Origin: Actinomycetota bacterium
GTDB lineage: Bacteria; Actinomycetota; Acidimicrobiia; Spongiisociales; UBA4744
Reading direction: 5' to 3'
NCBI GenBank assembly: GCA_013152275.1
Contig: JAADGS010000063.1
Span: 1-64,000, forward strand
Length of the DNA: 64,000 bases
Both the position numbers and the translations under genes were made by a program. Shown here in pieces: positions 40,428 to 63,074 of the stretch. The notes under the pieces were generated by a model. It did no database searches and was not told where the DNA came from. It was given only the letters and a program-made list of their open reading frames with translations. Each line of letters starts with the position of its first letter. Positions within the stretch are counted from its first letter, which is position 1.

Positions 40428-40900
40428 CCGATCGGGCACCGATCCTGGTTCTTGGACTTGGGAATGAACTCTTCACCGACGAAGGTCTCGGCATACATGC
40501 GGCCCGCCGTATCGAGGCCATGCAGCTGCATGGTGTGGACGTGCTCGATGGCGGCACCCTGGGCATCGCCCTCCTCCCCGAGTTGGAAGGGCGCGACGCC
40601 GTGCTGATCCTGGATGCGGTGATCATGGCGGAAGGATCACCGGGCACAGTCGTCAAACTCCAGGAGAACGAACTGGACCGGCCGGTCCAGATGCTGTTCT
40701 CCGCGCATCAGTTCGGGATCGGCGAGACGATCGCCGCTGCACGCCTCGTGGGCCAGGCGCCCGCCCGCCTGACGGCCGTGGGCATGGTCCCCTTCTCCCT
40801 CGAAACCGGATACGGACTGAGCGCCGAAGCAGATGAGGCGCTCGCCGGCATGATCGAAGAGGCGTTGGGGGTCTTGACGGAATGGGGAGTCGATGCATGA
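40424..40900 (+). CDS. Hydrogenase maturation endopeptidase (HyaD-like)
   Basis: VLGLGN...DEGLG, DGGT, LDAV, SAHQ. Confidence 0.92.
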   Translation: MTDRAPILVLGLGNELFTDEGLGIHAARRIEAMQLHGVDVLDGGTLGIALLPELEGRDAVLILDAVIMAEGSPGTVVKLQENELDRPVQMLFSAHQFGIGETIAAARLVGQAPARLTAVGMVPFSLETGYGLSAEADEALAGMIEEALGVLTEWGVDA

Positions 40901-41216
40901 GCAAGGTCTGATCGCCGGCGTCGCCGCCGAAGTCGTCGAACGTGCCGGCGGCGGACGCGTGGGGCGTGTGGTCATTACCGTCGGTCCGGAGATAGACCCT
41001 CTGATCGTGACGACGGCATGGCAGTCGACGGTCATCGGAACGACGGCCGAGACGGCCGACCTCGTCGTCGAGAAGGCCCTCGATACGATGCAGTGCTTCA
41101 CGTGTGGCATCGAATACGAAGGAGCGAAGCTCGATCCGTGTCCCAAGTGCGGCCTCGACGGCCTCGTGATCCGAGCTGCTCCCGAAATCGCCCTGAAGTC
41201 CTGGAGCCCCGCATGA
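40893..41216 (+). CDS. hypA: Nickel metallochaperone HypA
   Basis: MHE N-terminus, CFTC and CPKC. Confidence 0.88.
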   Translation: MHEQGLIAGVAAEVVERAGGGRVGRVVITVGPEIDPLIVTTAWQSTVIGTTAETADLVVEKALDTMQCFTCGIEYEGAKLDPCPKCGLDGLVIRAAPEIALKSWSPA

Positions 41217-41316
41217 GGACAAAGCCGTACGACTCCCTTGGCTCACGGCGCATCAGGTGTGACGAAGACACCCAGAAACGCGATCCTTCGGACAACGGCA
41301 GGATGGAGTGGCCCAC

Positions 41317-41577
41317 ATGTGCCTAGGCGTCCCCGGCAAGGTGCTCGAAATCACCCCCAACGATACGGGGATGACCATGGGGAAAGTCAGCTTCGCAGGG
41401 ATCATCAAGGACGTTTGCCTCGCCTACATCCCCGAGGTGAAGATCGACGACTATGTGATCGTCCACGTCGGATTCGCCATCAGCAGAATCGACGAGACCG
41501 AGGCTCAGGAAGTGTTCCGGTTCCTCGACCAGATGGGTGACCTGGGCGAACTCGAGATTCCCGAGATCGGACTGTGA
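41317..41577 (+). CDS. hypC: HypC chaperone
   Basis: [16 protein letters not shown]. Confidence 0.95.
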
Positions 41578-42659
41578 AGTACGTCGACGAGTACCGTAGC
41601 GAAGCCTCCGCGCGGCAACTCTTTGCCGCCATCCGTGATGCGACCACCCGACCGTGGACGATCATGGAGATCTGTGGAGGGCAAACCCACACGTTGATCA
41701 AGTTCGGAATCGACAACATGCTTCCCGACGAGATAACCCTCGTCCACGGCCCCGGCTGTCCCGTGTGCGTCACACCTTTGGAGATGATCGACAAGGCGAT
41801 CGCCATCGCCAGACGTCCCGAAGTGATCTTCACATCCTTCGGCGACATGCTGCGCGTGCCCGGTTCCGACACGGATCTGCTGGCCGTGAAGGCGGAAGGC
41901 GGCGATGTGCGAATGGTGTACTCACCACTGGACGCCGTGAGGCTTGCCCAGCGGTATCCGGACCGACACGTCGTGTTCTTCGCAGTCGGATTCGAGACGA
42001 CCGCCCCGGCCAACGCCATGGCGGTACGGCATGCGCGAGCGCTCGAACTCACGAACTTCTCGATCCTGTCCTCCCATGTCCTCGTGCCGCCGGCGATGGA
42101 AGCGATCCTCGGCTCCCCCGACAACCTGGTGCAGGGGTTCCTGGCTGCCGGACACGTCTGCGCGGTGATGGGCTATTGGGAATACGAACCGATCGCAGAA
42201 CGGTACAAAGTCCCGATCGTCGTGACCGGGTTCGAACCGCTCGACCTCCTCCAGGGCATCTACATGGCGGTACGCATGCTCGAAGAAGGGCGTGTGGGCG
42301 TCGAAAACCAGTACGCGAGGGCTGTCGTCAAGGAAGGCAACGTCCCCGCCCAGGCGATGTTGCGAGAAGTATTCCGGCCCTGTGACCGACCGTGGAGGGG
42401 CATCGGGATCATCCCTCTGAGCGGGTTCGGTCTGAACCCCGAGTACGCGGCGTTCGATGCCACACTCCGATTCGACGTGGAGACGGTGACGGCCTCCGAG
42501 TCGGAGATCTGCATTGCCGGCGAGATCATGCGTGGCCTTCGCAAACCAAACGACTGCCCGGTGTTCGGGACCGACTGCACACCGGAACACCCTGTGGGTG
42601 CGCCCATGGTCTCGTCTGAAGGTGCCTGCGCGGCCTACTACCAATACGGGAGGGTCTGA
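41574..42659 (+). CDS. hypD: HypD
   Basis: [34 protein letters not shown]. Confidence 0.97.
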
Positions 42660-42661
42660 CC

Positions 42662-43714
42662 ATGGATGTCTCCGGGCTCGGAGTGTGCCCGATTCCCATC
42701 ACCGACTACCCGCATGTGCTCCTTGCCCACGGCGGGGGCGGCTCACTGTCGCAGATGCTGATCGAGCGGATGTTCGTGCCGACGTTCGGGAACCCGGTCC
42801 TGAACCAGCTTCATGATGGCGCCGTGCTCGACATGGAAATGAACCGGATCGCCGTCTCGACGGATTCTTTCGTGATCAGCCCGCTCTTCTTTCCTGGAGG
42901 CGACATCGGTTCGCTCGCCGTCCACGGCACCGTGAACGACGTCGCCATGTGCGGCGCAACCCCACGATTCCTCACCGTCGCGTTCATCCTCGAAGAAGGC
43001 CTTCCCATGGATGATCTGTGGCGCATCGTCTCGTCGATGAGGACCGCGGCAGACGGTGCCGGAGTCACGATCGTGACCGGGGACACCAAGGTCGTCGACC
43101 GAGGCAAGGGCGACGGCATCTACATCAATACGACCGGGGTCGGCGTCGTACCAGAAGGGATCGAAGTCTCTCCGGTGCGTGCCGAGCCAGGGGATGTCGT
43201 ATTGATCTCGGGTCGTATCGCCGAGCACGGCATCGCCGTCATGTCGGTCCGGGAAGGCCTCGAGTTCGAGACGCGCATCGGGAGTGATTCGGCGTCACTC
43301 AACGGCCTCGTGGAGGCGATCCTCGGAGCAGGCGGGTCCCGTGTTCACGTCCTGCGAGACCCGACTCGGGGCGGCCTGGCAAGCGCAACCAACGAGATCG
43401 CCGGGAGCGCCCGACGCGGGATTCGACTCGTCGAGTCGACCATCCCGATCCTGGATGAAGTTCGGGGTGCCTGCGAGATTCTCGGGTTCGACCCTCTCTA
43501 CGTTGCCAACGAGGGCAAACTGATCGCCATCGTCGCACCGGATGCCGCCGGGGCCGTACTTGCCGCAATGCAGACCCACCCCCTGGGAAGGGATGCTGCA
43601 GTGATCGGCGAGGTGACCGCGGAGCATCCTGGCCGCGTGTTCCTTCGAAGCAGTGTCGGCGGTAGCCGAGTCGTGGACATGCTGAGTGGGGAGCAGCTGC
43701 CGAGGATCTGTTGA
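42662..43714 (+). CDS. hypE: HypE
   Basis: AHGGGG, GTVND, GDTKVV, RDPTRGG, C-terminal PRIC. Confidence 0.97.
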   Translation: MDVSGLGVCPIPITDYPHVLLAHGGGGSLSQMLIERMFVPTFGNPVLNQLHDGAVLDMEMNRIAVSTDSFVISPLFFPGGDIGSLAVHGTVNDVAMCGATPRFLTVAFILEEGLPMDDLWRIVSSMRTAADGAGVTIVTGDTKVVDRGKGDGIYINTTGVGVVPEGIEVSPVRAEPGDVVLISGRIAEHGIAVMSVREGLEFETRIGSDSASLNGLVEAILGAGGSRVHVLRDPTRGGLASATNEIAGSARRGIRLVESTIPILDEVRGACEILGFDPLYVANEGKLIAIVAPDAAGAVLAAMQTHPLGRDAAVIGEVTAEHPGRVFLRSSVGGSRVVDMLSGEQLPRIC

Positions 43715-46852: not shown

Positions 46853-47630
46853 TCCCCCTGAGGGGAAGACAAACCCTGGCGCTCTCAGCCGTTCTGGACG
46901 GATCGGATGTAGTCCAGGACCGCCCGGATCTCCTCATCGGAGAACGCCGGCATGGCCGTGCCCGCCACACCGTTCTCGATGGCTCCAAGTAGTTCTGCGT
47001 CGGGATCACCGGCCGCAGGCGAGTTCGCATCGAGAGCCTTACCGACACCACCCTCCAGATTCGCGCCATGACAGGCGGCACACTTCGCCGTGTAGATCGC
47101 CTTGCCATCGACGCCGCTCGAAGGCGCCGTCGTGGCGGTCGACCCGCCGCTCGAACACGCTGCTACCAGCAGCGCCAACACTGCAATGACAATGACCATG
47201 CGTCTCATGGATTCCTCCCCTTGGCAGGTCGAAACCTATCACGCAACACGGGTTTGTGGGGCCAACACCGCCTCAGGTCCTTGCTTCCTCCAACGCAGAT
47301 CGGGAGAAACCGAGTCGGATCGAAGACATCCCCATCACTTCGGCTCGTTCCTCGCCGAGCCCACATCCCCCTGAGGGGAAGACAAACCCTGGCGCTCTCA
47401 GCCGTTCTGGACGGATCGGATGTAGTCCAGGACCGCCCGGATCTCCTCATCGGAGAGCCGCTCCACGCCGGCATGGCCGTGCCCGCCACACCGTTCTCGA
47501 TCGTCCCGAGTAGTTCCTCGTCGGGATCACCGGCCGCAGGCGAGTTCGCATCGAGAGCCTTACCGACACCACCCTCCAGATTCGCGCCATGACAGGCAGC
47601 ACACTTCGCCGTGTAGATCGCCTTGCCATC
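46853..47630. repeat. Direct duplication of a cytochrome c domain plus 3' flank
   Basis: 46853-47109 and 47366-47630 near-identical; second copy has 8 extra nt at 47457-47464. Confidence 0.93.
46885..47208 (-). CDS. Monoheme cytochrome c lipoprotein
   Basis: Lipobox LVAAC, CAACH, distal Met in AMPAF; GGAGG RBS. Confidence 0.9.
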   Translation of the reverse strand: MRRMVIVIAVLALLVAACSSGGSTATTAPSSGVDGKAIYTAKCAACHGANLEGGVGKALDANSPAAGDPDAELLGAIENGVAGTAMPAFSDEEIRAVLDYIRSVQNG

Positions 47631-48134
47631 CGGTCCGGCTGCTCCAACGGTGGTCGTGGTACCGCCTCCGGTGGCGGACGGTGCCGCCAGTGGCTCCCGC
47701 CAGTTCGGACGATCGGGTGCGCCCTTTTCCAGCGAGCGCAGGTAGGAGGACAAGGCATTGATCTGTTCGAGGGTGAACGGACCGTTGAAGTCCTGCAGGT
47801 AGGCACTCATCTGCGTCCCCGGAATACCGACCGAGACGAGCGAGCGAATCTGCTCGTCTGACACCGAGCCGAGAAACTGCTTCGAATTGAGTGCAGGACC
47901 GATCCCCCCGGTGGCGTTCTGGCCATGGCAGGCAGCGCAGTTCTGCACGAAGAGTTCATCACCGGTGGCAATCAGATTGGCGACATGCTGCGCTTTTGCC
48001 TCCGCGCGCCTGTTCGGTTCGACCAGCCTGTAGGCGACAAACGCCAGCACGAGGAGCACCAGCAGACCGACACCCCACAGCATCCACCTGTTCGTAGATT
48101 CATCCATCTTCGGATCTGGTGGTCGTTCAGGCAC
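47398..48134 (-). CDS. Membrane-anchored diheme cytochrome c, frameshifted near 3' end
   Basis: N-terminal TM, two CAACH motifs; homologous stop at 47398-47400 is out of frame because of the indel at ~47460, so the ORF as read runs to 47205. Confidence 0.85.
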
Positions 48135-48630
48135 TTTCTGTCCCCCCGCAGTTTGGGCCACGCAGCGGTTCATCGATCGTCTCGGGGCCGCGTGGAGGCC
48201 CGAGAGTCACCAAACCCGTGTCCACTTGAACGATGCCGTCGACGATCTCCACCGCGTAGCGATCCATGCCTCGGGGAGCAGGGCCCTCCCGCCACTCTCC
48301 AAGTCGGTTGAACTTCGAGCCATGGCATGGGCACTCGAACTCGCCAGACGAATCGCACCACGGCACCCGGCATCCCAGGTGTGGACATTTCCACGAGAGT
48401 GCCACGGTCTCGCCCTCGATTTCGGCCACATACCCACGAATGGCCGGCAACTCGGCGACATCCACGGTCGGGACGTCGGCGACGGGGCCTGCTTTCACCA
48501 TTCCCCCGAAACCGGAGGTCTCGCCCGGCTTGAACATGTCCCAGCTTGTCCAGGCACCGGCAACACCAACGAGACCGAAACCCCATTTCCAGCCTCTGGC
48601 CAGCAGCTCTCTTCGGTTGATCTTGCTCAT
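48127..48630 (-). CDS. Rieske [2Fe-2S] protein of a Rieske/cytochrome b complex
   Basis: Tat NRRELL, CPHLGC and CPCHGSKF, GPAPR. Confidence 0.93.
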   Translation of the reverse strand: MSKINRRELLARGWKWGFGLVGVAGAWTSWDMFKPGETSGFGGMVKAGPVADVPTVDVAELPAIRGYVAEIEGETVALSWKCPHLGCRVPWCDSSGEFECPCHGSKFNRLGEWREGPAPRGMDRYAVEIVDGIVQVDTGLVTLGPPRGPETIDEPLRGPNCGGTESA

Positions 48631-49148
48631 AGCTCTCCGTACCAATCCTTCCACGGCCAGACCCAACCCCAGTCGGGACCTCTGAACATGAACCCGATCA
48701 GCGTGAGCAGGATCCAGACGACCATGAAGATCGTGAACGTGGCGACGGCCACCTTACGGAATCTTGGCTGAAGGTGAGGGTTCCGGTCGATGTACGGCAA
48801 CGCGGCCAAGCCGAGCACGATCGCGCCCGGCAAGAGGACTCCCGCCACCAGCGGATGGAAATGCGACAGGAGTTCCTGCAAGGCTGCAAAGTACCAAGGG
48901 GCCTTCTCGGGGTTCGGGGTCAAGTTCGGATTGGCGATCTCCCGCAGCGGAGCATTGAACACGACCGCAAGAAGCACGACGACTGCAACGACGACCAGAG
49001 CCGTCACGGCATGACGCACGAGCAGATGTGGCCACACCATCACCGGATCCTCCTCCGACAACACCTTCCGCTTCCCACCGGGCGGGATGCCGGGTACCAC
49101 GCCAAGGACACGATGCCCCTTGATCACCTTCGGTTCCTGGTCGTCCAT
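48627..49148 (-). CDS. Cytochrome b C-terminal half (subunit IV / PetD-like)
   Basis: VWPHLL, ANP..TPNPEKAPWYF, LPYIDR. Confidence 0.88.
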   Translation of the reverse strand: MDDQEPKVIKGHRVLGVVPGIPPGGKRKVLSEEDPVMVWPHLLVRHAVTALVVVAVVVLLAVVFNAPLREIANPNLTPNPEKAPWYFAALQELLSHFHPLVAGVLLPGAIVLGLAALPYIDRNPHLQPRFRKVAVATFTIFMVVWILLTLIGFMFRGPDWGWVWPWKDWYGEL

Positions 49149-49150
49149 GG

Positions 49151-49909
49151 TCACCTCCCCACCGCTGCGACGTCCTCTTCGGCACGCTCCTCGTCGGTCG
49201 ACTGCGTCAACATCGAGTCCTTCCTCCAACGCCAGAGATGGAACGTCACCACGATCACCAGCACCGTCGGCAGCACGGCGACATGCAGCACGTAGAAGCG
49301 GAGCAGGGTGGAAGAGCCGACTTCGGAACCGCCCAACAGGATCTTCTCGATGAGGCCTCCCAGCACCGGCACGAAACCTGCCATCGAGCTTCCGACCGTC
49401 ACCGCCCAATACGCCAACTGATCCCAGGGAAGCAGATAGCCCGTGAACGAGAGCAGCAATGTGATGACGAGCAGGACGACTCCGATGACCCAGTTGAACT
49501 CCTTCGGCTTCTTGTACGCACCGCGATAGAACACCCGGGCCATGTGGATTGCCACGATGAGCACCATCAGGTGGGCAGACCAGCGGTGAACGTTACGCAC
49601 GTATTGCCCGAACGGAATACTCGTCTGGATGCGCAGAATATCGAGGTACGCCGACGCCGGAGACGGCACATAGAAGAACATCAGATAGATGCCCGACAGC
49701 ACGAGTGAGCCGAAGAGGACCAGAGCTGCAACACCCAGATACCACGAGTAGCGGAAGCCGATCTCCTTCCTCCTCATCTTCACGGGGTAGATGTGCAACA
49801 AGAAGCTCGCCCAGTGGCCGGCGGCACGGTCGCGCTCCGTCACGCGGTCGGGAGTCCTCCAGATGGAGCGCCCGATCGTGGACTCTCTCACTTGTTTCAT
49901 CAGATTCAT
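49151..49909 (-). CDS. Cytochrome b N-terminal half (cytochrome b6 / PetB-like)
   Basis: HRWSAH...HMARV, NWVIG, TGYLLPWDQLAYWA, RFYVLH...FH heme ligands. Confidence 0.93.
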   Translation of the reverse strand: MNLMKQVRESTIGRSIWRTPDRVTERDRAAGHWASFLLHIYPVKMRRKEIGFRYSWYLGVAALVLFGSLVLSGIYLMFFYVPSPASAYLDILRIQTSIPFGQYVRNVHRWSAHLMVLIVAIHMARVFYRGAYKKPKEFNWVIGVVLLVITLLLSFTGYLLPWDQLAYWAVTVGSSMAGFVPVLGGLIEKILLGGSEVGSSTLLRFYVLHVAVLPTVLVIVVTFHLWRWRKDSMLTQSTDEERAEEDVAAVGR

Positions 49910-51708
49910 ACTTGCACTCCCACTTTTGGCACCCCCACTCCCGTCCACAATCCCATGGACAGGGCGTCCGTCGGGCACCGCTCGATACAAAGCGCGCACC
50001 GAATGCATGCACGCTCGTCGAACATCAGCGCCGTCGACCCTGCCGGACCGGCCCCAACCTCCTCTGCCGGAACGAGCGAGATCACATCGATCGGACACAC
50101 GTCGGCGCACAGCGCGCACAGCACGCACTCACTGGCGTCGAGGAGGATGTTGGCAAAACAGCGTAGGCATCGTTTGGCCTCACACCGAGCCATCTCCTCG
50201 GTGAACCCTGTCTCGACCTCCGTCAGGCCGATGCGACGATCGGTCGGAGTCGTGGGGACATCGATGCGCCCGATACGGTCGTAGATGTCATCGAGACGGT
50301 GAAACTGCTCCAGCCGGACCATCTGGCCTCTCTGTTGCTCCTGGATCTCGCCACCGAACGCCTTGTGGATCTGCGCCGCGGCGATCCGACCGTCGGCGAT
50401 ACCGAGGATCAGTGTTCGGGGCCCTTTTGCGGCGTCGCCACCGGCCCACACCATGGGTATCGACGTCTCGAGGGTGTCGGGATCGATCTGGATCGTCCTG
50501 CGGGGGGAGACCTGCGGACCGTCGGCGCCGAGCGCCTCGACATCGACCGACTGACCGATGGCCAGGATGATCGTGTCCGCCTCGTGCAGTTGAACATCAT
50601 CGTGGTCGAACTTTGGCGCGAATCTCCCGTTCTCGTCGAACACCGACAGCACACCAATCGTTTCGAGTCCGGTAACGCGGCCACGAGTGTCCGTCAGGAT
50701 GCGAGCGGGCCCGCGACGGTGCACGAACGCGATGTTCTCATTCACGGCCTCTTCGAGCTCGAACTCCGAGGCAGGCAACTCCTCGACCGATTCGAGCGAG
50801 ATGACCTTCACGTGTGTCGCTCCGGCTCGAGCCGCGGTGCGGGCAACGTCGAGAGCTTCGGTGATAGCGGCCGTCTCTTCCACCTGTTCGAACCGGCTTT
50901 CCAGAGCCTTGGTCTCGTAGGCGTCGCGCCGCAACGCAGTCCGTGCGGCATCCATCGCCACGTCGCCGCCGCCGATGACGATCACCTTCTCGCCGATGTC
51001 CACCTCAAAACCTTGATTGGCGTTGAGGAGGAACTCGACGGCCTTCAAGACGCCATCTGCGTCGCCTCCGGGGATGTCGAGACCGCGTCCCAAGAACGCG
51101 CCGAACGACAAGAAGACGGCGTCGTGACGCTCTCGTAGTTGATCCAGCGTGACATCGGCACCGAGTCTCGTATTCAGCTGCACCTCGACACCCATGTCGA
51201 CGATTGCACGGATCTCCGCCGCGAGCAGGCTTCGATCGAGGCGATATTCGGGAATGCCGAGAACCATCATCCCGCCGAGAACTCCCGTCGCTTCATACAC
51301 CGTCACCTTGTAGCCGAGACGTCGCAGGTCGTGCGCCGCCGACAGCCCTGTCGGCCCACCACCTACGATCCCCACGCTGTAGGGGAGATCGACGAGTGGT
51401 GCTCCAGCCACTTCCTTGTACATGTCGCTGCCTGCTTCGACCCCGTACCTCTCGGTGACGAACCTCTTCAACGCCCGAATGGCGATCGGCCGGTCGATCT
51501 CCCCCCGGCGACACTCGTCTTCGCATGGTGCAGCGCACACACGACCGCAGACCGAGGCAAATGGGTTCGGCAACCGGGCGGTCAAATAGGCGAACTCGTC
51601 CTCACCGTCCGCGATGGCGGCCACGTATGCGCCTGCGTTCGTGTGAACGGGGCATGCGGCCAGACACGGGATGTTCTCGTCGTAGAACTGGAGGGGCCCG
51701 ATCGTCAT
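49906..51708 (-). CDS. Fe-S flavoprotein, GltD/DsrL-like NAD(P)H oxidoreductase with C-terminal 2x[4Fe-4S] ferredoxin
   Basis: CLAACP and CGRVCAAPCEDEC, GGGPTG, GIPEYRL, IGGGDVAMD, EAKRCLRC, CVLCALCADVCP, CIRCALCIERCP. Confidence 0.9.
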   Translation of the reverse strand: MTIGPLQFYDENIPCLAACPVHTNAGAYVAAIADGEDEFAYLTARLPNPFASVCGRVCAAPCEDECRRGEIDRPIAIRALKRFVTERYGVEAGSDMYKEVAGAPLVDLPYSVGIVGGGPTGLSAAHDLRRLGYKVTVYEATGVLGGMMVLGIPEYRLDRSLLAAEIRAIVDMGVEVQLNTRLGADVTLDQLRERHDAVFLSFGAFLGRGLDIPGGDADGVLKAVEFLLNANQGFEVDIGEKVIVIGGGDVAMDAARTALRRDAYETKALESRFEQVEETAAITEALDVARTAARAGATHVKVISLESVEELPASEFELEEAVNENIAFVHRRGPARILTDTRGRVTGLETIGVLSVFDENGRFAPKFDHDDVQLHEADTIILAIGQSVDVEALGADGPQVSPRRTIQIDPDTLETSIPMVWAGGDAAKGPRTLILGIADGRIAAAQIHKAFGGEIQEQQRGQMVRLEQFHRLDDIYDRIGRIDVPTTPTDRRIGLTEVETGFTEEMARCEAKRCLRCFANILLDASECVLCALCADVCPIDVISLVPAEEVGAGPAGSTALMFDERACIRCALCIERCPTDALSMGLWTGVGVPKVGVQV

Positions 51709-51944
51709 ATCTTCTGCGCCTTCTGCAGGTGGCGAAGCGCCACCATACCGACCGCCAGCGCCGTAAACCAGACCCCCGAGACCACAATGTCCTGGACGGC
51801 TCTCGGGGCGCCGGAGATCGGGGCCACCTTGAACAGCACCGAAGGCAACCACACGGTCATGAGGAAGAAGGAGAAGAACAGGACGAAGGCGCGCGCATAC
51901 GCGCCTTTCCAGGTGAACGATTCGTGACCCGGTTTCACGACCAT
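51705..51944 (-). CDS. Small two-TM membrane protein homologous to the NarI C-terminal extension
   Basis: 79 aa, GGAAGG RBS, ATGA overlap with flavoprotein start, TVWLPS...SGAPR.VQD motif shared with NarI tail. Confidence 0.82.
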   Translation of the reverse strand: MVVKPGHESFTWKGAYARAFVLFFSFFLMTVWLPSVLFKVAPISGAPRAVQDIVVSGVWFTALAVGMVALRHLQKAQKI

Positions 51945-52095
51945 GACCACGAATCCTTCCGAGCGGACGAGGGCTGTGAAACTACCCGACGGGACCCGAA
52001 GCCACCGGCCTCTCGATGCACCGCACCGTTGCACTCGAAGAGAACTTCCACCGTGGATGCGAGCAACATCAAGCGGACCATCGGTTCTCTCCCTC

Positions 52096-52113
52096 TCGTG
52101 AACGCGTGCATCA
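52096..52113 (-). promoter_or_regulatory. Candidate Rex operator overlapping a -10 element
   Basis: Minus strand TGATGCACGCGTTCACGA, 15/18 match to TTGTGCACGCGTTCACAA, overlapping TATGAT. Confidence 0.55.
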
Positions 52114-52308
52114 TATCCCCGTGTCTGACCGTACCTCTGGCTGTCGTCTTCGAGCGCTCGGGAACTCGCAGATTCGAGCCGGCCATCCGAGCCTACCGCG
52201 CAACGGATCATCAGCGAACTCGAATACTATGACACGAGGATCCTTATTGATAAGATCCACCAATCCCTAGGCGATAACGGGGTCGAGGGAATAATGATCG
52301 GAGGGATC

Positions 52309-53784
52309 ATGAGACGGACCCGCCTTTTCGCCGTGCTGTTTGTGTTCACACTTGTCGCTGCCGCCTGTTCGAGTACAGCCGAGACGACAACGACCACGAC
52401 ACCGGTACAGACGACGACAACGACGAAAGCCGCCACCACGACAACCGCCATGAAGGTCGCCCAAGGAGATGTCGTCAAAGGCGGCCTCTTGTACGACAAG
52501 TGGTGGAAAGCCCTCGGTATCGACGAGCCATCCGGCGACATGCCACTGTGGGCAACCCAGAGTACGAATACCCGATCCGGAGCCGCCACCTGGCGCTGCA
52601 AAGAGTGCCACGGCTGGGACTACAAGGGCGCCGAGGGTGTCTATGCCTCCGGTTCCCACGCGACCGGATTCCCCGGAATCTGGGATGCGCGGTCCAAGTC
52701 GTATGACGATTTGAAGGCCATCCTCACGACGGGGGATCACGATTTCTCCGTGATGGGCGACGCAGCCCTGGAGGACTTGATCACGTTCGTCCAACAGGGC
52801 CTCGTGGACACGTCGAAGTACATCAACGCCGACAAGACCCTCATCGGGGCCGATCCCGACCGAGGCGACGGACTCTTCGACAGTGCCTGTGCGGCCTGTC
52901 ACGGTGCGGACGGCACGACGATCAATTTCGGTTCTGACGAAGAGCCCGAGTTCGTGGGTACCGTCGCATCGGACAACCCGTGGGAAGCGCTTCACAAGAT
53001 TCGCGTCGGCCAGCCGGGCGCGGCGATGCCGGCGGCGCTGAACGGCGACTGGACCATCCAGGACATGATCGACGTCATTGGCCATGCCCAGACGTTCCCC
53101 ACCGAGAAGACCGGGGAGGATCTGAGCGCAATAGCGTTGGGCGGCAGACTCTACGACAAGTGGTTCAAAGTCGCGGGCGTGGACGCGCCCGACGGCGACA
53201 TGCCGCTGTGGGCAAACCAGTCCACGAACACCCGTAGCGGCGCCGATACCTGGCGCTGCAAAGAGTGCCACGGCTGGGACTACAAGGGTGCCGACGGTGT
53301 CTATGCCTCCGGTTCCCACGCGACCGGATTCCCCGGAGTCTGGGATGCACGAGACTGGACCAGCGAACAGATCGTTGCCCAGATCTCCGGCAAGAACGAC
53401 CCGAATCACGACTTCTCGCCGTATCTGTCCCATGACCAGCTGCACGCACTCGCCGTGTTCATCACCAACGGCATGTTCGACAAGTCGACGCTGTTCGATC
53501 CGGCCACGAAGACACCCACGGCAGGCGATGCCGCCGAAGGGAAGAAGCTCTACGACGCAGGATGCGCGGCGTGCCACGGTGCGGACGGCACGCAGATCAA
53601 CTTCGGTGACGACGCCGAACCCGAGTATGTGGGGACGGTCATGGTCGACAACCCGTGGGAAGGTTCGCACAAGATCATGTTCGGCCAGCCCGGAACCGGT
53701 ATGCCGACCGGGATCGAGAGCGGCTTGAGCATCGAGCAGCTTCTCGACCTGATCAAGTACATGCAGACGTTCCCGACCAGCTAG
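52309..53784 (+). CDS. Tetraheme cytochrome c lipoprotein with tandem diheme repeats
   Basis: Lipobox AAAC, Thr-rich linker, (CKECH + CAACH) x2 at 220-aa spacing. Confidence 0.9.
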   Translation: MRRTRLFAVLFVFTLVAAACSSTAETTTTTTPVQTTTTTKAATTTTAMKVAQGDVVKGGLLYDKWWKALGIDEPSGDMPLWATQSTNTRSGAATWRCKECHGWDYKGAEGVYASGSHATGFPGIWDARSKSYDDLKAILTTGDHDFSVMGDAALEDLITFVQQGLVDTSKYINADKTLIGADPDRGDGLFDSACAACHGADGTTINFGSDEEPEFVGTVASDNPWEALHKIRVGQPGAAMPAALNGDWTIQDMIDVIGHAQTFPTEKTGEDLSAIALGGRLYDKWFKVAGVDAPDGDMPLWANQSTNTRSGADTWRCKECHGWDYKGADGVYASGSHATGFPGVWDARDWTSEQIVAQISGKNDPNHDFSPYLSHDQLHALAVFITNGMFDKSTLFDPATKTPTAGDAAEGKKLYDAGCAACHGADGTQINFGDDAEPEYVGTVMVDNPWEGSHKIMFGQPGTGMPTGIESGLSIEQLLDLIKYMQTFPTS

Positions 53785-53808
53785 AGACCCTCGCCAACAT
53801 CGACAATT

Positions 53809-53834
53809 GCGGCCCCCGGATTGCCGGGGGCCGC
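53809..53834 (+). terminator. Probable intrinsic terminator
   Basis: GCGGCCCCCGG-ATTG-CCGGGGGCCGC followed by TGCTTT. Confidence 0.65.
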
Positions 53835-53854
53835 TGCTTTGGTAACGTCGCCCC

Positions 53855-54427
53855 ATGGCACTCGGAGTCATCCTCGCCGGCGGAATGTCACGACGCATGG
53901 GAACCGACAAGGCACTCGTCGACGTGGCCGGACGCCCCATGGTCGAATGGGTTGCCGCAGCACTCCACCGCGTGTGTGACACGACGATCGTCGTCGGCCG
54001 CGAGGATCTCGATGGCCTGCGATGTGTGCCGGACACACAGACGCGCGTTCGTGGCCCGCTCGCCGGCCTCGTGACTGCGCTCGGGTCGGCGCACGGCCAG
54101 GCCGTCCTACTGGTTGCAGTGGACCAACCCTTCCTTCGATCCCAGACGATGCAGAGGCTGCTCGACCTGGCTTCGAACGAGGCAGTGGTACCGATCGATG
54201 GAGCCAGGCAGGTGACCTGCGCCGTCTATCCGGCCTCCTGGGCATCCGAGACGATCGACGAGGTCGAATCCGGCGGCTCGATCCAGTCGCTCCTCGACCG
54301 GCTGGCACATCGCCGGGTCGAAGAATCGGAGTGGCGCGCGTGGGACGAGGATGGGCGCTCCTGGTTCAGCGTCGACACTTCCGGGGCACTGACCGAAGGC
54401 CTGGCCCGGTACGGGCCCCCCGGATAG
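53855..54427 (+). CDS. mobA: Molybdenum cofactor guanylyltransferase
   Basis: ILAGGMSRRMGTDKA, GPLAGL, AVDQP. Confidence 0.9.
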   Translation: MALGVILAGGMSRRMGTDKALVDVAGRPMVEWVAAALHRVCDTTIVVGREDLDGLRCVPDTQTRVRGPLAGLVTALGSAHGQAVLLVAVDQPFLRSQTMQRLLDLASNEAVVPIDGARQVTCAVYPASWASETIDEVESGGSIQSLLDRLAHRRVEESEWRAWDEDGRSWFSVDTSGALTEGLARYGPPG

Positions 54428-54507
54428 CAGCCGGCAGGGACACTCGCCCCGGTTGCCCACTCCCACGCCGGGTACCGGATACGAAGCACGGGCAGGCGAA
54501 GCCTGGC

Positions 54508-55530
54508 CTATCCCCCGATATAGCTCATCTCCACTCTGGGCAGGTCCGAGGTCCGCGACGAGCGGAGTTCCGAGTATCGGTCATCACGGCGCTCCCATAG
54601 ACGTGTGATCTGCGCCGAGATCTCGTCATCGGACGCGCCGGACCGCAGTGGGGACCGCAGATCACGACCAGTCGTCGCGAACAGGCATGTGTACAGCGAC
54701 CCGTCGGCCGAGACCCGAACCCTCGTGCACGAGCCACAAAACGGCATCGTGACGGAAGCGATCACCCCGATCTCACCACCACCGTCGACGTAGCGAAAGC
54801 GCCTGGCGACCTCTCCCGGGTAACGCGGCGCCAGCGCTTCGATTGGATAGACCGCATCGACCGTCTCGATGATCTCGCCGGCGGGTACCACGTCATCGAG
54901 ACGCCAGCCGTTCGTGCCTCCCACGTCCATGTACTCGATGAACCGCAGGATGTGACCCGTGCCCCGGAACTCTCGTGCCATGTCGACGATCGTATGATCG
55001 TTGATACCACGTTGGATCACGGCGTTGATCTTCACCGGTCCCAGTCCGACCTCTGCTGCGACGTTGATCCCGTCCAGAACCCTGGCGACAGGAAAGTCGA
55101 CGTCATTCATCGCACGGAACACGGTGTCATCCAGCGAATCGAGACTGACGGACACCCGATCGAGACCGGCGTCCTTCAAGTCGGCCGCATGCTGGGCCAA
55201 GAGAGCCCCGTTTGTCGTCAGGGTGAGATCATCGATTCCATCGATCGCACTCAGGCCGGCAATCAGATGACCCAGATTCCTCCGCAGTAGCGGTTCGCCA
55301 CCGGTGATACGAACCTTGCGAACCCCGAGTCCGGCGAAGATCCGCACCAACCGCTCGATCTCCTCGAGGCTGAGCAGGAGATCCCGGCTGAGAAACTCCC
55401 ACTCCCGATTGAAGATCTCCTTCGGCATGCAATACGTGCAACGAAAGTTGCAGCGGTCGGTGACCGAGATACGCAGATCTCGAAGGCATCGCTCAAACGT
55501 GTCCGCTATGGCAGTACGGTCATCAGTCAT
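54508..55530 (-). CDS. moaA: GTP 3',8-cyclase
   Basis: [25 protein letters not shown]...TC, C-terminal IGG. Confidence 0.96.
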
Positions 55531-55542
55531 CAGTCATCAGTC
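55518..55542. repeat. Heptamer tandem repeat over the moaA start
   Basis: GGTCATC AGTCATC AGTCATC AGTC. Confidence 0.7.
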
Positions 55543-55731
55543 TATGTTCGGACCGCAGTATGCAGATCCGATCCGCCTGCGGCAAAACGCCCAGCGCCTT
55601 GGCCGGTGACATTCGTGGTGTCGATGCCGAGGCAGGGGCGTCGGGTCGACACGGATCGACCCGTCCCATTCGTTCGAGTCGAGTTGTCGGGTCGATCCGA
55701 TGTCGATCGCAAGACCCGCACAACGACGGCG

Positions 55732-56631
55732 CTAGATCCTGGCGGTCCGTTGTGCCCAGCGCAGACCGAAGATCACGAAGGCCAGCAGGACCAGCCAGGT
55801 ACCGCTGGCCGCGAGATCCTGCACCAGACGCGGGGCGCCCGACAGCGCCGAGCTCTCCAGCAGCGCCGAGGGCAGCCAGACGGTACCGACTGCGAAGACA
55901 ACGACGATGAGCACACCCCGCAGCCAGGCCGAGCCCCAGCTGATCCCCGACAGCCTCGGGACTTCTCTCCGCACCCAGACGACGATCTGCCACGGCCGTA
56001 TCAGGTATCCGAGCGGCACCGTGATGATGTGTACCAGCCGGGAGAAGGGGAAGAGCGCGAGGAAGACGAAGAACAACACGACGTGCGTCTGCGTAATGAA
56101 CGGCATCGAAGCCAACAGATCCGCACGGGGCTGAAGCGACAGCAGTGAGCGCACGTAGGGGACCATCACGCCGAGCCCCCACACCGACCCGAACCGGTAC
56201 AACACCGCGGTCAGCACTCCAGTGAGCACCTGGAAGCCGACAAGTGTCAGCACGATGCCATCCATCAATGAGGTCACCGCGCGGACTCTGTGCTCCGTCA
56301 GACGTCGATACCCGAGCACGAGCAGCCCACCGAGTGCCCAAACGCCGAGAGCGAACCCCGTGGCCTCCAGCAGGTAGAGGCGGACCGGAGCCCTATTCCA
56401 GACGAGGAATGTCTCCGGTACCACCAAGGCAACGAGGTGGGCGGTGAGGATGACCACGACCCCCCAGTGGAACGACACCGAGCCCCAGAAGAGCTTCTTG
56501 CGCTCCAGCAGTTGCGAGGACAATGACGACATGGTGAACGGACGGCGAACGGCACGATAGAACGTGCCGATCACCGCCACGGCGGTCGCCACGTACGGGA
56601 AGATCACGAACAACAACAGGTTCCAGTTCAT
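55732..56631 (-). CDS. narI: Respiratory nitrate reductase gamma subunit with C-terminal extension
   Basis: PY, SSQLLE, FHWG...H, H...FPFSRLVH, YLIRP.Q; then ~75 extra residues. Confidence 0.94.
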   Translation of the reverse strand: MNWNLLLFVIFPYVATAVAVIGTFYRAVRRPFTMSSLSSQLLERKKLFWGSVSFHWGVVVILTAHLVALVVPETFLVWNRAPVRLYLLEATGFALGVWALGGLLVLGYRRLTEHRVRAVTSLMDGIVLTLVGFQVLTGVLTAVLYRFGSVWGLGVMVPYVRSLLSLQPRADLLASMPFITQTHVVLFFVFLALFPFSRLVHIITVPLGYLIRPWQIVVWVRREVPRLSGISWGSAWLRGVLIVVVFAVGTVWLPSALLESSALSGAPRLVQDLAASGTWLVLLAFVIFGLRWAQRTARI

Positions 56632-57130
56632 GCGGCACCTCCAACGGGCATCGATACCGCCCTCGTCGCCTCGAGAAGGAAGCGGTAGGGGTTGTCGGGT
56701 TCGGCCTTGGCGAGCGCCTTCACCATCCGATCCAGGGCATTCGGAAAGATCTCGACCAGACCCGGCAGCGGCTCGGACGCCACGGCAAGGTAGCGCAGCA
56801 CGGGGTCGAGATGGTCCGACAGTTCTCCGAGCGGGTCGATCCCGGCTTCCTTCTCGACCCGCTGCATGTCTGCGAGGAACGCTCCTCGCTGGTAGCTGTC
56901 CTCCCAGATCACGTAGCCCACATAGGGAACGAACAGGGGCGAAAGGTCCAGCGTCCGGGTGTGCAGCTCCTCCCAGCCCTCCTGACCGAGAGATCCGATC
57001 ACGTCGACGAATCGACCGAAGTGGCGGCGAATCGACGAATCCTCGACCGAGCCCGCGGCCGACCGCAGGAACTCGAGACTTTCCGGGCCCGGATAGCGAA
57101 ACCCGGCGGCGAGCGCATCCAGATCGGTCA

Positions 57131-57134
<4 letters not shown>
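56628..57134 (-). CDS. narJ: Nitrate reductase assembly chaperone
   Basis: YP, TLDL...PYVG, RG, ELSDHL, NPY; between narH and narI. Confidence 0.88.
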
Positions 57135-58645
<1,511 letters not shown>

Positions 58646-58656
58646 GCGATTCCTCC

Positions 58657-61600
58657 TCAGTACTCGGGTCGATCGATTCGGCGCAGGTAGACGAAAGTGT
58701 CTCGGTTCACCCCGGTCGGACCCCAGTAGTTGAAGGAGTAGGTGAACTGGCCATATCCGCCGCTCATGAGCACGGGCTTCAACCGCGCTCGTGTCAACGA
58801 GTTGTTCATACCGGCTCTTCGCTTCCGCAAAGGAGAGATCGGGATGCCGACGGTGCGCTCGGTGGCGTGGTAGACGAATACGGCGCCTCGTGGAATGCGA
58901 GAAGACGTTACGCATCGCTGGACGAAGACGCCGTTGTCGTTGAACAGCTCCACCCAGTCGTTGTCGGTGATACCCAGTTCCGCGGCATCCTTGGCGTTCA
59001 GCCACACCGGGTAGCCGCCGCGAGACAGGGTCTTCATCCGGATGTTCTCGGAGTACGTCGAGTGGATACTCCACTTGCCGTGCGGAGTGATGTAGTTGAA
59101 GAGCTTCCCCTGGGCTTCGACCTTGACCCGCTCCGTCTCCAGCAACATCGTGTGGTCGGGTCGCGGTTTGAAGGTCGGAAGCGACTCACCCCAGGTCAGG
59201 TAATTCTCATGGTCAAGGTAGAAGTGCTGGCGTCCGGTCAGCGTGCGCCACGGGACATCACGTTCCACGTTCAGCGTGTAGGGACTGTATGCCCTGCCGT
59301 CGTTCACGATTCCGCTCCACGTCGGAGTCGTGAGCACCCTTCGCGGCTGGGCAACGATATCTGCGAACGTGGTTCGCGTGCTCCGCCGGCCATCGGCGAG
59401 ATCGACCAGGTCCAACCCCGTCTTGGCGCCTTCGGCCTCGAAAGCCCGATAGGCGAGTTCGCCGTTCGACGCAGGGTCGAGATGCAGAATGGCCTCGCAC
59501 ACCTGCCGATCGAACTCGAGCGAAGGGTACGGTCTGCCATTGAGCGCCTCGATCCCGATGGTTCGAGGCTGGCGCTCGATCAGCTGCCGGTAGAAGTCCG
59601 CGACAGGGAACTTGATCCCATGTGCGCCAACCCCGTTCTTCTCGATTCCCCGTCCGAGCGACACCATCCGTTCGTAGAGGCCGGTGTAGTCACGCTCAAC
59701 GACCTTGAACTTGGGCATCGTCTTGCCGGGAATCCCCTCGACCTCGCCCTTGGTCCAGTCGCGCGTGTCGGTCTGGGCGATCTCATCGACGGTGTCGTGC
59801 TGCAGCGGCAGCATGACGATGTCCTTCAGGGGACCCGACAGGTGAGCCTCTGCAAGTTCGGAGATCTTGTGAGCGATCGCCTTGTAGATCGCCCAATCCG
59901 ACTTCGACTCCCACGCCGGCGCCACCGCCGCCTGCATCGGGTTGATGAAACTGTGTAGGTCGGTCGTATTCAGATCGTCCTTCTCGTACCAGGTCGCCGC
60001 CGGAAGGACGATGTCCGAGTAGAGGGCGCTCGTGTCCATCCGGAAGTTCAGATCGACGATGAGGTCCATCTTGCCGATTGGCGCCTCGGGTCGGAACGTG
60101 ACCTCTTTCACCGAGTCGCCGGCGTGTTCTTCGGCGACTGCGTTCGAGTGCGTGCCGAGATAGTGGCGCAGGAAGTATTCGTGGCCCTTGGCGGAGGTGC
60201 CGATGGCGTTGCCCCGCCAGATGAACCAGGTTCGCGGCCAGTTCTCAGGGGCGTCCGGGTCGTCGATGGCAAACCGAATGTCGCCGGATTTGAGGCCCTC
60301 GACGACGAAGTCGATGATCTCGGCGTCGGTGGTCGCCCCTGCAGCCTGCGCCCTCCGGGCAAGGTCCAGCGAGTTCTCGCCGAACTGTGGAAAGAACGGC
60401 AGCCAACCCTTGTGGACGGCTCGCACCTGATGATCGATGGTGTGGTCGTCGAGACCGGCGTTCCCGGGCAGCGTGTCGTAGTCGGAGTAGCCCCGCTCGT
60501 AACGCCACTGGTCGCTGTGCACATAGTGAAACGAGGGCGTGTTCTGGTGACGGGGAACCATCCCCCAGTCCCCTCCGAAGGCGATCGGAGCCCACGAAGC
60601 ATGCGTCACGAGCTTCTCCTGCCCGACGTAGTGCGCCAGACCGCCGCCGTTGACGCCAACCGAGCCGGTGAGCATCAAGGCGGTGATCCCTGCCCGGTAC
60701 AGCAGGTTGTTGTGATACCAGTGGTTGACGCCGGCGCCGATGATGATCAGGTTCTTGCCCTTGGTCTGCTCCCCGTTTGCCAGCCACTCGCGGGCGAACC
60801 GGATGACGGTGTCACGATGGATGCCGGTCTGCGATTCCTGCCACGCAGGAGTGAACGGCGCCTCCACATCGTCGTACCCGGTCGCGTACGCTCCTCCGAG
60901 ACCGCGATCGACACCGAACTGGGCCATCATCAGGTCGAAGACGGTGGTGACGGCGACCCGACCTTCCTCGGTCTCGATGTACCGGACGGGCACGCCGCGT
61001 GTCCGGGTCGTCCCCTCCGCAAAGTCGTCGAAGGCGACCTGCTCGACGGCGTCGTGACGCTCGACGAACGTCAGGTCCGGATCGAGCGCCTCGCCGGTGG
61101 TCGCATCCTCCGGTTTGAGATTCCACTTGCCCTTTTCCTTGTCGGCCCACCGGAATCCGATCGTGCCCTTGGGCATACGAGGGCGGTTCGACGTGCGGTC
61201 CCACCAGAGCATCTTCCAGTCGCCATGCTCGGTGCCGGCGTACTCGGCGACACGACCGGCGCGCAGGTACTTCCCCGCCGTTCCACCGCTGATCTCGACG
61301 AGGAACGGCATGTCGGTGGTTCGCTTCACGTAGCTCGTGAAATACGGGACCTGGCGATCGGCATACGCCTCTTTGAGGATGACGTGATCGACGGCCAGCC
61401 AGAAGGCCGTGTCCTGCCCGGGATGGGCCGGGATCCACCAGTCGGCGTACTTGGCGACCTGGGAGAAGTCGGGGCTGAACACGGTGAGTTTCGCGCCCGC
61501 GTGCCGGACCTCGGCGATGAAGTGACAGTCGGGAGTCCGGGTCATGTTGAGGTTCGAACCGACCACGGCGATGAACCTCGAGTTGTACCAGTCGGCGGAT

Positions 61601-62271
61601 TCGGCCACGTCGGTCTGCTCACCCCACACTTCGGGAGAGGCCGGCGGCAGGTCGCAGTACCAGTCGTAGAAACTCATGACGACGCCGCCGAAGAGGGAGA
61701 GAAACCGGCTCCCCGAGGCGTAGCTGATCTGAGACATGGCAGGGATCGGAGAGAACCCGATGACACGGTCGGGGCCGTGCTTCTTCGCCGTGTGGACCGA
61801 TGACGCGGCAGCGATCTCGAGCGCCTCGTCCCAGCGGATGCGGCGGAACCCGCCCTTGCCCCGCGCCTGCTGGATCCGGCTGCGCTTCTCGGGATCCGCC
61901 ATGATCGATGCCCATGCGTCCACCGGGTCGTTGTGCAGCCGCCTGGCGGCGCGCCACAGGTCGATGAGTGCCCCGCGAGCATACGGATACTTGACGCGAA
62001 TCGGGCTGTACAGGTACCACGAGAAGGAGATCCCCCGTTGGCACCCTCTCGGCTCGTACGGTGGAAGGCCGTCTTCGAGACGCGGATAATCGGTGGCCTG
62101 CAACTCCCAGGTCACGATGCCGTCCTTGACGAACACCTCCCAGGAACAACTCCCCGTGCAGTTCACCCCGTGGGTGGTGCGCACCCGCTTGTCGTGCTGG
62201 AAGCGGTTTCGGTAGAACTCCTCCCACTTGCGCTCCGCCGGAGCGACTTTCTCTTGCGTCCAATCCTTCAT
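58657..62271 (-). CDS. narG: Respiratory nitrate reductase alpha subunit (cytoplasm-facing, no Tat signal)
   Basis: [10 protein letters not shown] (FS0), [36 protein letters not shown]; start MKDW at 62271. Confidence 0.97.
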
Positions 62272-63074
62272 CGCCCGCTCCTCAGTCGTTCCACATAACT
62301 CGTCCGTGATCTCCTGAATATCAACATCACCCCGAACAACACCACTGCACCGATCACACCCAGGACCAACAGCAGATCGACCCCGCCCGACGAAGGCTGT
62401 GTCGTCGCGAAGTATGCGGCGAGGTCGGCCCGCTCCGCGTCCGTGAAGGGGCTCGCCCCGAACACCGGTTGCATCGTCGGGGACGGCGGGTTGGCCAGGA
62501 CGGCGAAGACACCGTCGGTGCCTCCGAATCGAGCAGACAGGTCGGTGAGGTCCGGTCCCAGCGTGCTGCCACCGAGGTTGGTGTGGCTGCCTGCACTGTG
62601 ACATGCGATGCAGGCCGGTCCGCCTCCGTCCAGCCGCTGCACACCGACGAAGATCGCCTCGCCACGCTCGGCGGAGCCGGTCACGGCCGCCGCGGTCGGC
62701 ACGGTTACACCCGCGGTAGTAGTGGTCCCGGCCGGCGACCCTTGCAGATCACCCTGCACGTGACCGATCAGCGCGGCGATGTCTGCGTCGCTCAGTGAGG
62801 AGAACGGAGGCATGACGCCGTCGTATTGGACTCCGAGCACCTCGATCGGCCCCGAAAGCCCCCCGGTGATCACGGTGCGCACGAACTCGGCATCCTGAAC
62901 TGCCGGGTTGCCGGCGAGAGGGGGGAACGATCCTGCAACGCCTTCGCCGGTGGGACCGTGGCACGCCGCACAATTCGTCTGGTAGATGGTGGCGCCGTCG
63001 GGTTCGGCGGCCGAGGCCGCAGGCACGACGGCCATCGTCATGAACAGCGTCGCCGCGACGAGGTAGCGGATCAT
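62268..63074 (-). CDS. Diheme cytochrome c, NarC-like
   Basis: Signal peptide, CAACH and CIACH, C-terminal TM anchor, ATGA-coupled to narG. Confidence 0.85.

Follow-up and report, generated by a model that had tools for sequence, protein, structure and literature searches.

Why should the membrane subunit of a respiratory nitrate reductase end in a copy of a small protein that heads a different respiratory operon? The question is raised by a stretch of 64,000 nucleotides (the window; assembly GCA_013152275.1, contig JAADGS010000063.1, positions 1 to 64,000) from an uncultured actinobacterium of the class Acidimicrobiia (the class to which named homologues and adjacent records also point), in which NarI continues past its usual C-terminus into a segment of 72 residues. 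A homologous segment is encoded as a small open reading frame (ORF) at the head of an operon for a Rieske/cytochrome b complex with an iron-sulfur (Fe-S) flavoprotein. We refer to the shared segment as the module, and find that it represents an apparently undescribed family of two-helix membrane proteins. It is likely to be a lineage-specific extra subunit of actinobacterial Rieske/cytochrome b complexes of the type that has the motif APWY at the quinol oxidation (Qo) site; for the fuller statement, in which the NarI tail also holds NarGHI beside such a complex, we judge the case for and against to be evenly balanced.

Two copies of one module

The free ORF (51705-51944, minus strand) codes for 79 residues, predicted to form a helical hairpin whose two termini are cytoplasmic, and NarI (55732-56631, minus strand) has 299. 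The profiles for the NarI core, PF02665 and TIGR00351, span residues 4-219 and 4-217 of these, so the NarI domain ends near residue 219 and about 75 residues are extra at the C-terminus, as the initial annotation had claimed. The core comprises 227 residues (55951-56631, minus strand) with four conserved histidines (55, 65, 183 and 201), and the module the C-terminal 72 (55732-55950, minus strand). The ungapped match reported earlier also held: the last 71 residues of the free ORF are identical to NarI at 28 of 71 positions, the two terminate together, and the BLASTP E-value is 4e-16. The Smith-Waterman score of the pair is 144, compared with at most 64 among 20,000 full shuffles and at most 88 among 20,000 shuffles of 8-residue blocks. 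The ATGA overlap of the free module gene with the start of the flavoprotein is likewise present.

An assembly artefact was considered and rejected, as contigs from public sequencing runs reproduce both regions without gaps. Contigs of run X1 cover 50800-52617 with no differences and 55672-56800 with two, a contig of X2 covers 51210-52455 with one, and a contig of X3 covers 55697-56147 with none; all three runs belong to one study, labelled hydrothermal vent metagenome, which is possibly the source study of the window; no RNA run was listed among those containing the region. A second study (X5) contributed a gap-free relative across 55734-56666, including the junction of NarI with its tail, at 72 differences.

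The two copies had been described as paralogous, and they are homologous; they are distant paralogues, however, placed in different parts of the module tree. A recent local duplication is rejected by their 39% protein identity, their 113 identities in 216 nucleotides and their separate tree positions. In this tree (79 rows and 74 columns, with many forks unresolved) the free copy nests among the cytochrome c-fused copies of its family (support 99/88), and the tail shows a weak affinity (88/87, unstarred) to free copies and to other copies fused to NarI, apart from the cytochrome c-fused copies of the family.

Distribution and form of the family

Related genomes are not independent of one another, and the counts given here and below describe the family but do not test a claim. 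Genomes flagged as unpublished contribute only to the raw tallies of the 42-sequence profile, the accessory cytochrome b and the phylum-wide search. A profile built from the two window sequences found the module in 45 of 401 genomes of the class, and a 42-sequence profile found it in 72, of which nine short partial matches were set aside. In gene maps of 48 Acidimicrobiia loci the module lay directly upstream of the flavoprotein in 42, the exceptions being four cytochrome c fusions elsewhere, one copy directly before cytochrome b and one remnant, and the proposed link to respiratory operons is supported. Searched from the other side, the accessory cytochrome b occurs in 66 genomes (E <= 1e-83), in five of which the module profile finds nothing; four of these five operons have a divergent module copy at the expected place, and the fifth is cut by a contig end. 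Across the phylum 23 of 301 genomes match the profile, and the module is followed by the flavoprotein in 10 of the 14 loci listed; the matches at L132, L134 and L135 proved unrelated and were discarded.

The complexes in question are of one type. The APWY motif is present in the subunit IV of the window (48627-49148, minus strand) and in 59 of 59 related operons. In some loci, L052 for example, cytochrome b and subunit IV are naturally fused. The short, b6-like cytochrome b of the window (49151-49909, minus strand) has no cysteine in the region of the haem-ci motif, and none of 50 accessory cytochrome b sequences matches the cysteine pattern for haem ci/cN.

The module occurs in three forms: free (about 70-100 residues), as the end of a protein with a cytochrome c and a transmembrane helix, and as the end of NarI-like proteins. 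It is C-terminal in every fusion seen, and the module region is repeated within one protein at locus L073. Its best-conserved positions are W5, A8, P27, L63, R64, Q67 and I72; the alignment has no conserved histidine or cysteine, the largest fraction of either in any column being 0.08. An AlphaFold2 model of the module is a helical hairpin (pLDDT, the predicted local distance difference test score, of 85). The C-terminus of NarI is cytoplasmic, and a chain of signal peptide, cytochrome c and transmembrane helix also ends in the cytoplasm, so that the hairpin would have both its N- and C-termini inside.

Comparison with known families supported the earlier statement that the two-helix module belongs to none described. 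Neither the short form nor the long form discussed below has a sequence match in Pfam or the PDB, an NCBIfam scan of the two window proteins gave no match for the module, and a single-sequence phmmer search returned the query as its sole match. Foldseek with the AlphaFold2 models gave no match at E <= 0.001. The best Z scores in a VIA fold search, 7.6 and 6.9, were to generic hairpins, a helical hairpin being too generic a query, and the ESM Atlas returned unnamed clusters or low-score leads only. A search for longer proteins carrying the module gave one cytochrome c fusion and is weak evidence on other fusions. No account of the module or of the NarI fusion was found in a literature search that left subscription journals and paper supplements outside its scope, and the portions of PMC5600118, PMC5317091 and PMC12008989 considered here make no mention of the module.

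Two further arrangements were seen in these surveys. At the f6 loci L037 and L038 a cytochrome c-module fusion precedes a gene pair resembling a ba3-type haem-copper oxidase (judged by eye), away from the Rieske operon, and such fusions might indicate tethering towards an oxidase. At L038, L040, L045, L076, L210 and L212 a separate gene, which fuses a cytochrome b-like domain to part of a flavoprotein/ferredoxin, occurs some 3 kb away from that of the module.

The free gene as a remnant of a cytochrome c fusion

The small gene had been called stand-alone, which is true of the present ORF; the gene itself is the deletion remnant of a longer one. Its orthologue in G122, which together with G342 represents the genus of the window's own genome (G000), has 236 residues comprising a signal peptide, a cytochrome c, one transmembrane helix and the module, and each of the 15 other copies that occupy the operon position in the family is a fusion of this kind. 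The window keeps the old start codon (52081) and scattered pieces of the fusion gene, with 334 nucleotides lost in several deletions relative to G122, and the old start now opens a 48-residue leader ORF (51935-52081, minus strand), the decayed remnant of the cytochrome c.

The free ORF has thus lost the cytochrome c part, and it has gained a ribosome-binding site. A Shine-Dalgarno-like sequence (51954-51960, minus strand) stands 9 nucleotides upstream of its ATG, with a predicted energy of -9.1 kcal/mol for pairing with the 16S end of the same genome, compared with -3.2 at the corresponding place in G122. The stop of the leader overlaps a GTG at codon 3 of the module (a GTGA overlap), and a predicted hairpin of -29 kcal/mol covers the module start. 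Given the Shine-Dalgarno-like site and the GTGA overlap, translation of the 79-residue ORF is plausible. The module frame is intact, and its ratio of nonsynonymous to synonymous substitution rates (dN/dS) relative to G122, 0.35, falls within the 0.13-0.47 seen across pairs in the family. Counts of unique changes with three outgroups (9 versus 2, 7 versus 3 and 8 versus 3) are only suggestive of faster evolution of the free copy, which could be kept partly for translational coupling to the flavoprotein. A weak lead on the origin of the fused cytochrome c is that 11 of 14 group with the NarC-like protein (FastTree support 0.918, about 90 columns), from which they might derive.

A long-loop homologue in the housekeeping operon

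The class has a second, near-universal cytochrome b, whose operon encodes a membrane protein, a 2x[4Fe-4S] ferredoxin, cytochrome b, subunit IV (also with APWY), a Rieske protein and a cytochrome c. The membrane protein precedes the ferredoxin in 18 of 19 such loci, found by pattern, and is a homologue of the module with a long loop, in which the W, A, P, D and Q positions align with those of the module (hhalign E 1.4e-7, probability 94%). Of 161 class genomes, 148 have this homologue, including 35 of 37 in a family with genomes of about 1 Mb, and 11 of the 13 genomes without a match to it also lack a match to the cytochrome b. In G000 nothing matches the long-form model or the standard housekeeping operon, and thus the flavoprotein-linked complex may be the main complex III of that genome.

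An intermediate form of the module stands before a divergent short cytochrome b on contig C99 of G000 (L133:4519-6133) and in G122 (L139). This is a third, distant module copy, with no ferredoxin gene between it and cytochrome b; C99 ends inside the operon.

Taking both forms together, the module is present at 47 of 50 actinobacterial cytochrome b loci (named GTDB loci) and at 36 of 42 actinobacterial-type flavoprotein loci, three of the misses being at contig ends. Loci of other phyla are nearly empty, and the module is thus better regarded as an actinobacterial addition than as a universal flavoprotein anchor. One non-actinobacterial case was seen, in a Gemmatimonas genome (L227), where the order is module, flavoprotein, cytochrome b, Rieske protein and cytochrome c; transfer is possible there.

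The NarI fusion

The core of the tailed NarI scores above the curated cut-offs (208 bits versus 22.9 for PF02665 and 137 versus 105.6 for TIGR00351), its haem ligands H55, H65, H183 and H201 align with those of tail-less NarI, and it is encoded within narGHJI. Among 63 NarI-like matches in 301 genomes of the order, 57 (four of them partial) have no tail and six have one, and on this count the module is rejected as the general anchor of Nar and Rieske complexes that the initial annotation had suggested. The tail occurs together with all four histidines only in G000 and G122, a single genus. A fragment (P0035), additional to these matches, retains the two C-terminal histidines and the module, and the fused proteins of G683, G399, G802 and G760 have lost two or three of the four histidines and follow a cytochrome c gene, three of them directly preceding the flavoprotein. 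The same arrangement, a cytochrome c followed by a histidine-depleted NarI-like-module fusion that heads the flavoprotein operon in three cases of four, was noted at L033, L206, L207 and L208, which are possibly nar operons that lost narGHJ and were left with a haem-poor membrane subunit.

Between G000 and G122 the tail is identical at 68 of 72 residues, with 4 nonsynonymous and 10 synonymous changes and a dN/dS of 0.15, compared with 0.09 for the NarI core and 0.07 for the operon genes; the tail is under purifying selection. In the third genome of the genus, G342 (99% complete), the tail is a frameshifted relic, and searches of that genome for NarI, the operon cytochrome b and the operon flavoprotein found none of the three.

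These data bear directly on the best-surviving alternative to a docking function, in which the module is a subunit of the complex and the NarI tail is merely a tolerated relic of fusion between adjacent genes, retained through packing on NarI or through harm done by truncation, and no supercomplex exists. It has several points in its favour: in G369 the operon begins with a separate module gene that narI overlaps, which shows how a NarI fusion could arise; most NarI-like proteins do without the tail; the remaining NarI-module fusions are degenerate; and identity between the tail and the operon copy of the same genome is only 39%. Yet one stop codon would be enough to give back an ordinary NarI, and conservation of the tail equals that of the core (94% versus 95%); moreover, it retains W5, A8, P27, D45, W52, L63, R64, Q67 and I72 and the exact C-terminal end. 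We regard the relic explanation as doubtful, although it deserves to be kept in mind.

Proposed role of the module

The reading that we prefer is that the module is an extra subunit of the APWY-type complex, and we consider this part of the proposal likely. The cytochrome b6f complex (PetG, PetL, PetM and PetN) and the mycobacterial bcc-aa3 complex both carry small, cofactor-free membrane proteins on a Rieske/cytochrome b core, and the module is likened to these by analogy only, having no sequence match to Pfam, NCBIfam or PDB entries. Being a hairpin of two helices that lacks cofactor ligands and has its N- and C-termini in the cytoplasm, it would probably pack on the core formed by cytochrome b and subunit IV. 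The module is always C-terminal in its protein, so that upstream genes can fuse on to it and would thereby bring a redox partner to the complex, namely a periplasmic cytochrome c in most of the family and NarI-like proteins in other lineages. Its behaviour, in short, is that of a supernumerary subunit which also serves as a tether.

The NarI tail would then fill the module's site on a usually dimeric complex and hold NarGHI adjacent, and the free copy, minus its cytochrome c, would fill the same kind of site. Homologous Rieske/cytochrome b complexes are usually dimers, according to the part of PMC12954380 considered here, so that the NarI-borne and free copies could occupy equivalent sites without pairing. 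Judged from the sequences, docking of Nar on the complex via the tail is plausible, and a shared docking site on the cytochrome b core would explain the fusions more simply than pairing of the copies. Complex predictions for flavoprotein, cytochrome b, subunit IV and module, with a 50-row alignment each, scored 0.27, 0.33 and 0.37, both partner-replaced controls scored 0.00, and the control with the flavoprotein replaced scored 0.40; these scores were not used as evidence either way.

Several observations weigh against this proposal. For the subunit itself, three f6 genomes have the operon without a module upstream and a cytochrome c-module gene elsewhere; three of the 39 actinobacterial-type flavoprotein loci away from contig edges have no module; and in other phyla it was seen at one of 50 loci, that is, at one of 30 cytochrome b loci (seven of the 30 being at contig ends) and at none of 20 flavoprotein loci. 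The topology is not fixed by charge alone, as the loop is also rich in lysine and arginine (1.9 per sequence, compared with 1.7 at the N-terminal and 3.1 at the C-terminal end). For the tether, intact fusions are rare, with 2 among 63 NarI-like matches and the fragment P0035 in addition, the histidine-depleted fusions fit relics of operon adjacency, and the estimate of selection on the tail rests on 14 substitutions in one genome pair.

Other roles for the module appear less probable. That it is an assembly factor for membrane insertion or haem loading, acting transiently on cytochrome b and, when fused, on NarI, would suit its link to two different dihaem b cytochromes, its lack of redox ligands and its position as first gene of the operon. 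The repeated fusions to a periplasmic cytochrome c suit a permanent subunit better, however, and both the homologous complexes of other phyla and most NarI proteins are encoded without it, which leaves this role improbable. A slightly poorer candidate still is a membrane anchor mainly for the cytoplasmic flavoprotein or ferredoxin, with cytochrome b not the partner. The module does directly precede the Fe-S gene in both types of operon, and its most conserved residues lie at both presumed cytoplasmic ends; yet it is retained before cytochrome b where the Fe-S gene is missing, as in G262 and in the degenerate operons on C99 of G000 and in G122, and none of the 20 flavoprotein loci of the Acidobacteriota/Bacteroidota type carries it. 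Least probable is the initial suggestion that Nar is bridged to the Rieske/cytochrome b-flavoprotein complex through pairing of the two copies, for which no supporting evidence was found: G000 and G122 each keep two copies and the L073 protein repeats the region, but most genomes carry just one copy of the short form and lack a NarI fusion, so that the basic role of the module needs no second, Nar-borne copy.

If the docked arrangement is carried to its full extent, one arrives at a tethered supercomplex of Nar, complex III and an NAD(P) reductase, with the tail plugged into an APWY dimer that bifurcates electrons from menaquinol and with the module as a reusable docking tag; we hold this larger scheme to be unlikely as it stands. 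The high-potential electron would pass via the Rieske protein, cytochrome c and the NarC-like protein or NarI to nitrate, and this branch would pay for transfer of the low-potential electron to NAD(P)+ by way of the b haems and Fe-S clusters, as a nitrate counterpart of the anammox proposal. On the preferred reading, too, nitrate could be the exergonic sink for a bifurcation of the anammox style proposed in the portion of PMC12954380 considered here, or else the flavoprotein could feed electrons in; sequence cannot tell the direction of electron flow.

Gene content around the two copies

On the minus strand the genes run in the order of an Rrf2 regulator, a dihaem cytochrome c, narG, narH, narJ, narI with its tail, and moaA. 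The dihaem cytochrome c (62268-63074, minus strand) is first in the nar operon, the position of Thermus narC, and narG, narH and narJ occupy 56628-62271 (minus strand). Between moaA and the free module the plus strand encodes mobA and a four-haem cytochrome c; the latter (52294-53784) is lipoprotein-like, with four CxxCH motifs that arose by internal duplication, and is divergent from the operon. Between this gene and the operon lies a near-palindrome (52247-52259), perfect in G122 with 5-3-5 spacing, which may be the binding site of a regulator, possibly of the Rrf2 protein encoded nearby. An intergenic repeat between narI and moaA (55591-55732) is palindromic, with perfect inverted arms of 12 nucleotides and high contig depth; it has 12 BLAST matches in the genome counting itself, four of them near full length, and looks like an element of the repetitive extragenic palindrome (REP) or miniature inverted-repeat transposable element (MITE) type.

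The operon that follows the free module, mostly with ATGA overlaps, encodes in order a flavoprotein, the short cytochrome b, subunit IV, a Rieske protein (48170-48630, minus strand) and a cytochrome c. The flavoprotein (49906-51708, minus strand) is a GltD/Nfn-like FAD/NAD(P) protein of 600 residues with an N-terminal Fe-S domain and a C-terminal 2x[4Fe-4S] domain. The last gene (47205-48173, minus strand; start codon uncertain) encodes a membrane-anchored cytochrome c with two CxxCH motifs. Across 46885-48173 it is followed by a separate lipoprotein-like ORF, an 89% identical copy of its second domain, and the end of the first ORF appears frameshifted. A few kilobases from the operon, 39465-43714 contains a gene like that for Ni/Fe-hydrogenase cytochrome b and hyp maturation genes (named by inspection), a possible H2 source of quinol.

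Significance and comparison with known systems

The work defines a family that resembles a standing subunit of complex III throughout the Acidimicrobiia, retained even in genomes of about 1 Mb, and it connects the extra membrane genes found in the housekeeping and flavoprotein operons. The natural fusions point to cytochrome c and NarI as partners of complex III. Although the intact NarI fusion is limited to one uncultured genus, its tail is a handle that can be deleted to probe the association of Nar with complex III, the existence and mode of which came into question in Streptomyces, and also to ask if NAD(P)H can be a product of APWY-type complexes.

In the part of the account by Kao and Hunte (2014, PMC4122944) considered here, deep-branching Actinobacteria belong to the APWY clade of Rieske/cytochrome b complexes, no member of which had been characterised at that date. 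The window system shares with this clade a split or short cytochrome b and the APWY motif at the Qo site, and adds a probable extra membrane subunit and a NarI fusion, neither of which is mentioned in that part of the account. The anammox complexes Kuste4569-4574 and Kustd1480-1485, for which bifurcation to NAD(P)+ has been proposed, are similar in clustering a b6-like cytochrome b, subunit IV, a Rieske protein, a c-type cytochrome and an Fe-S flavoprotein, a likeness drawn from the description in the consulted part of PMC12954380 and not from direct sequence comparison. They differ in having hexa- or octahaem cytochromes and a modelled haem cN, whereas the window has a cytochrome c with two CxxCH motifs, no such cysteine, and the added module.

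The closest parallels for an alliance of Nar with complex III come from two other bacteria, each known to us here from a portion of the source. Nar1 of Streptomyces coelicolor is dependent on the bcc-aa3 supercomplex, with which it co-purifies (PMC7931247), and it likewise represents an actinobacterial NarGHI allied to a complex III; its partner, however, is the canonical QcrCAB and no covalent tether is described in that portion, whereas the proposed partner of NarGHI in the window is an APWY, flavoprotein-linked complex. In Thermus thermophilus, the proposed link between Nar and other respiratory steps is NarC, which binds NarI (PMC7694296). The window resembles Thermus NarCGHI in having a dihaem cytochrome c gene first in its nar operon, a match to NarC by position and haem count only; in contrast to the Thermus enzyme, which is proposed to replace complex III (PMC7694296), the NarI of the window carries a domain resembling a subunit of complex III.

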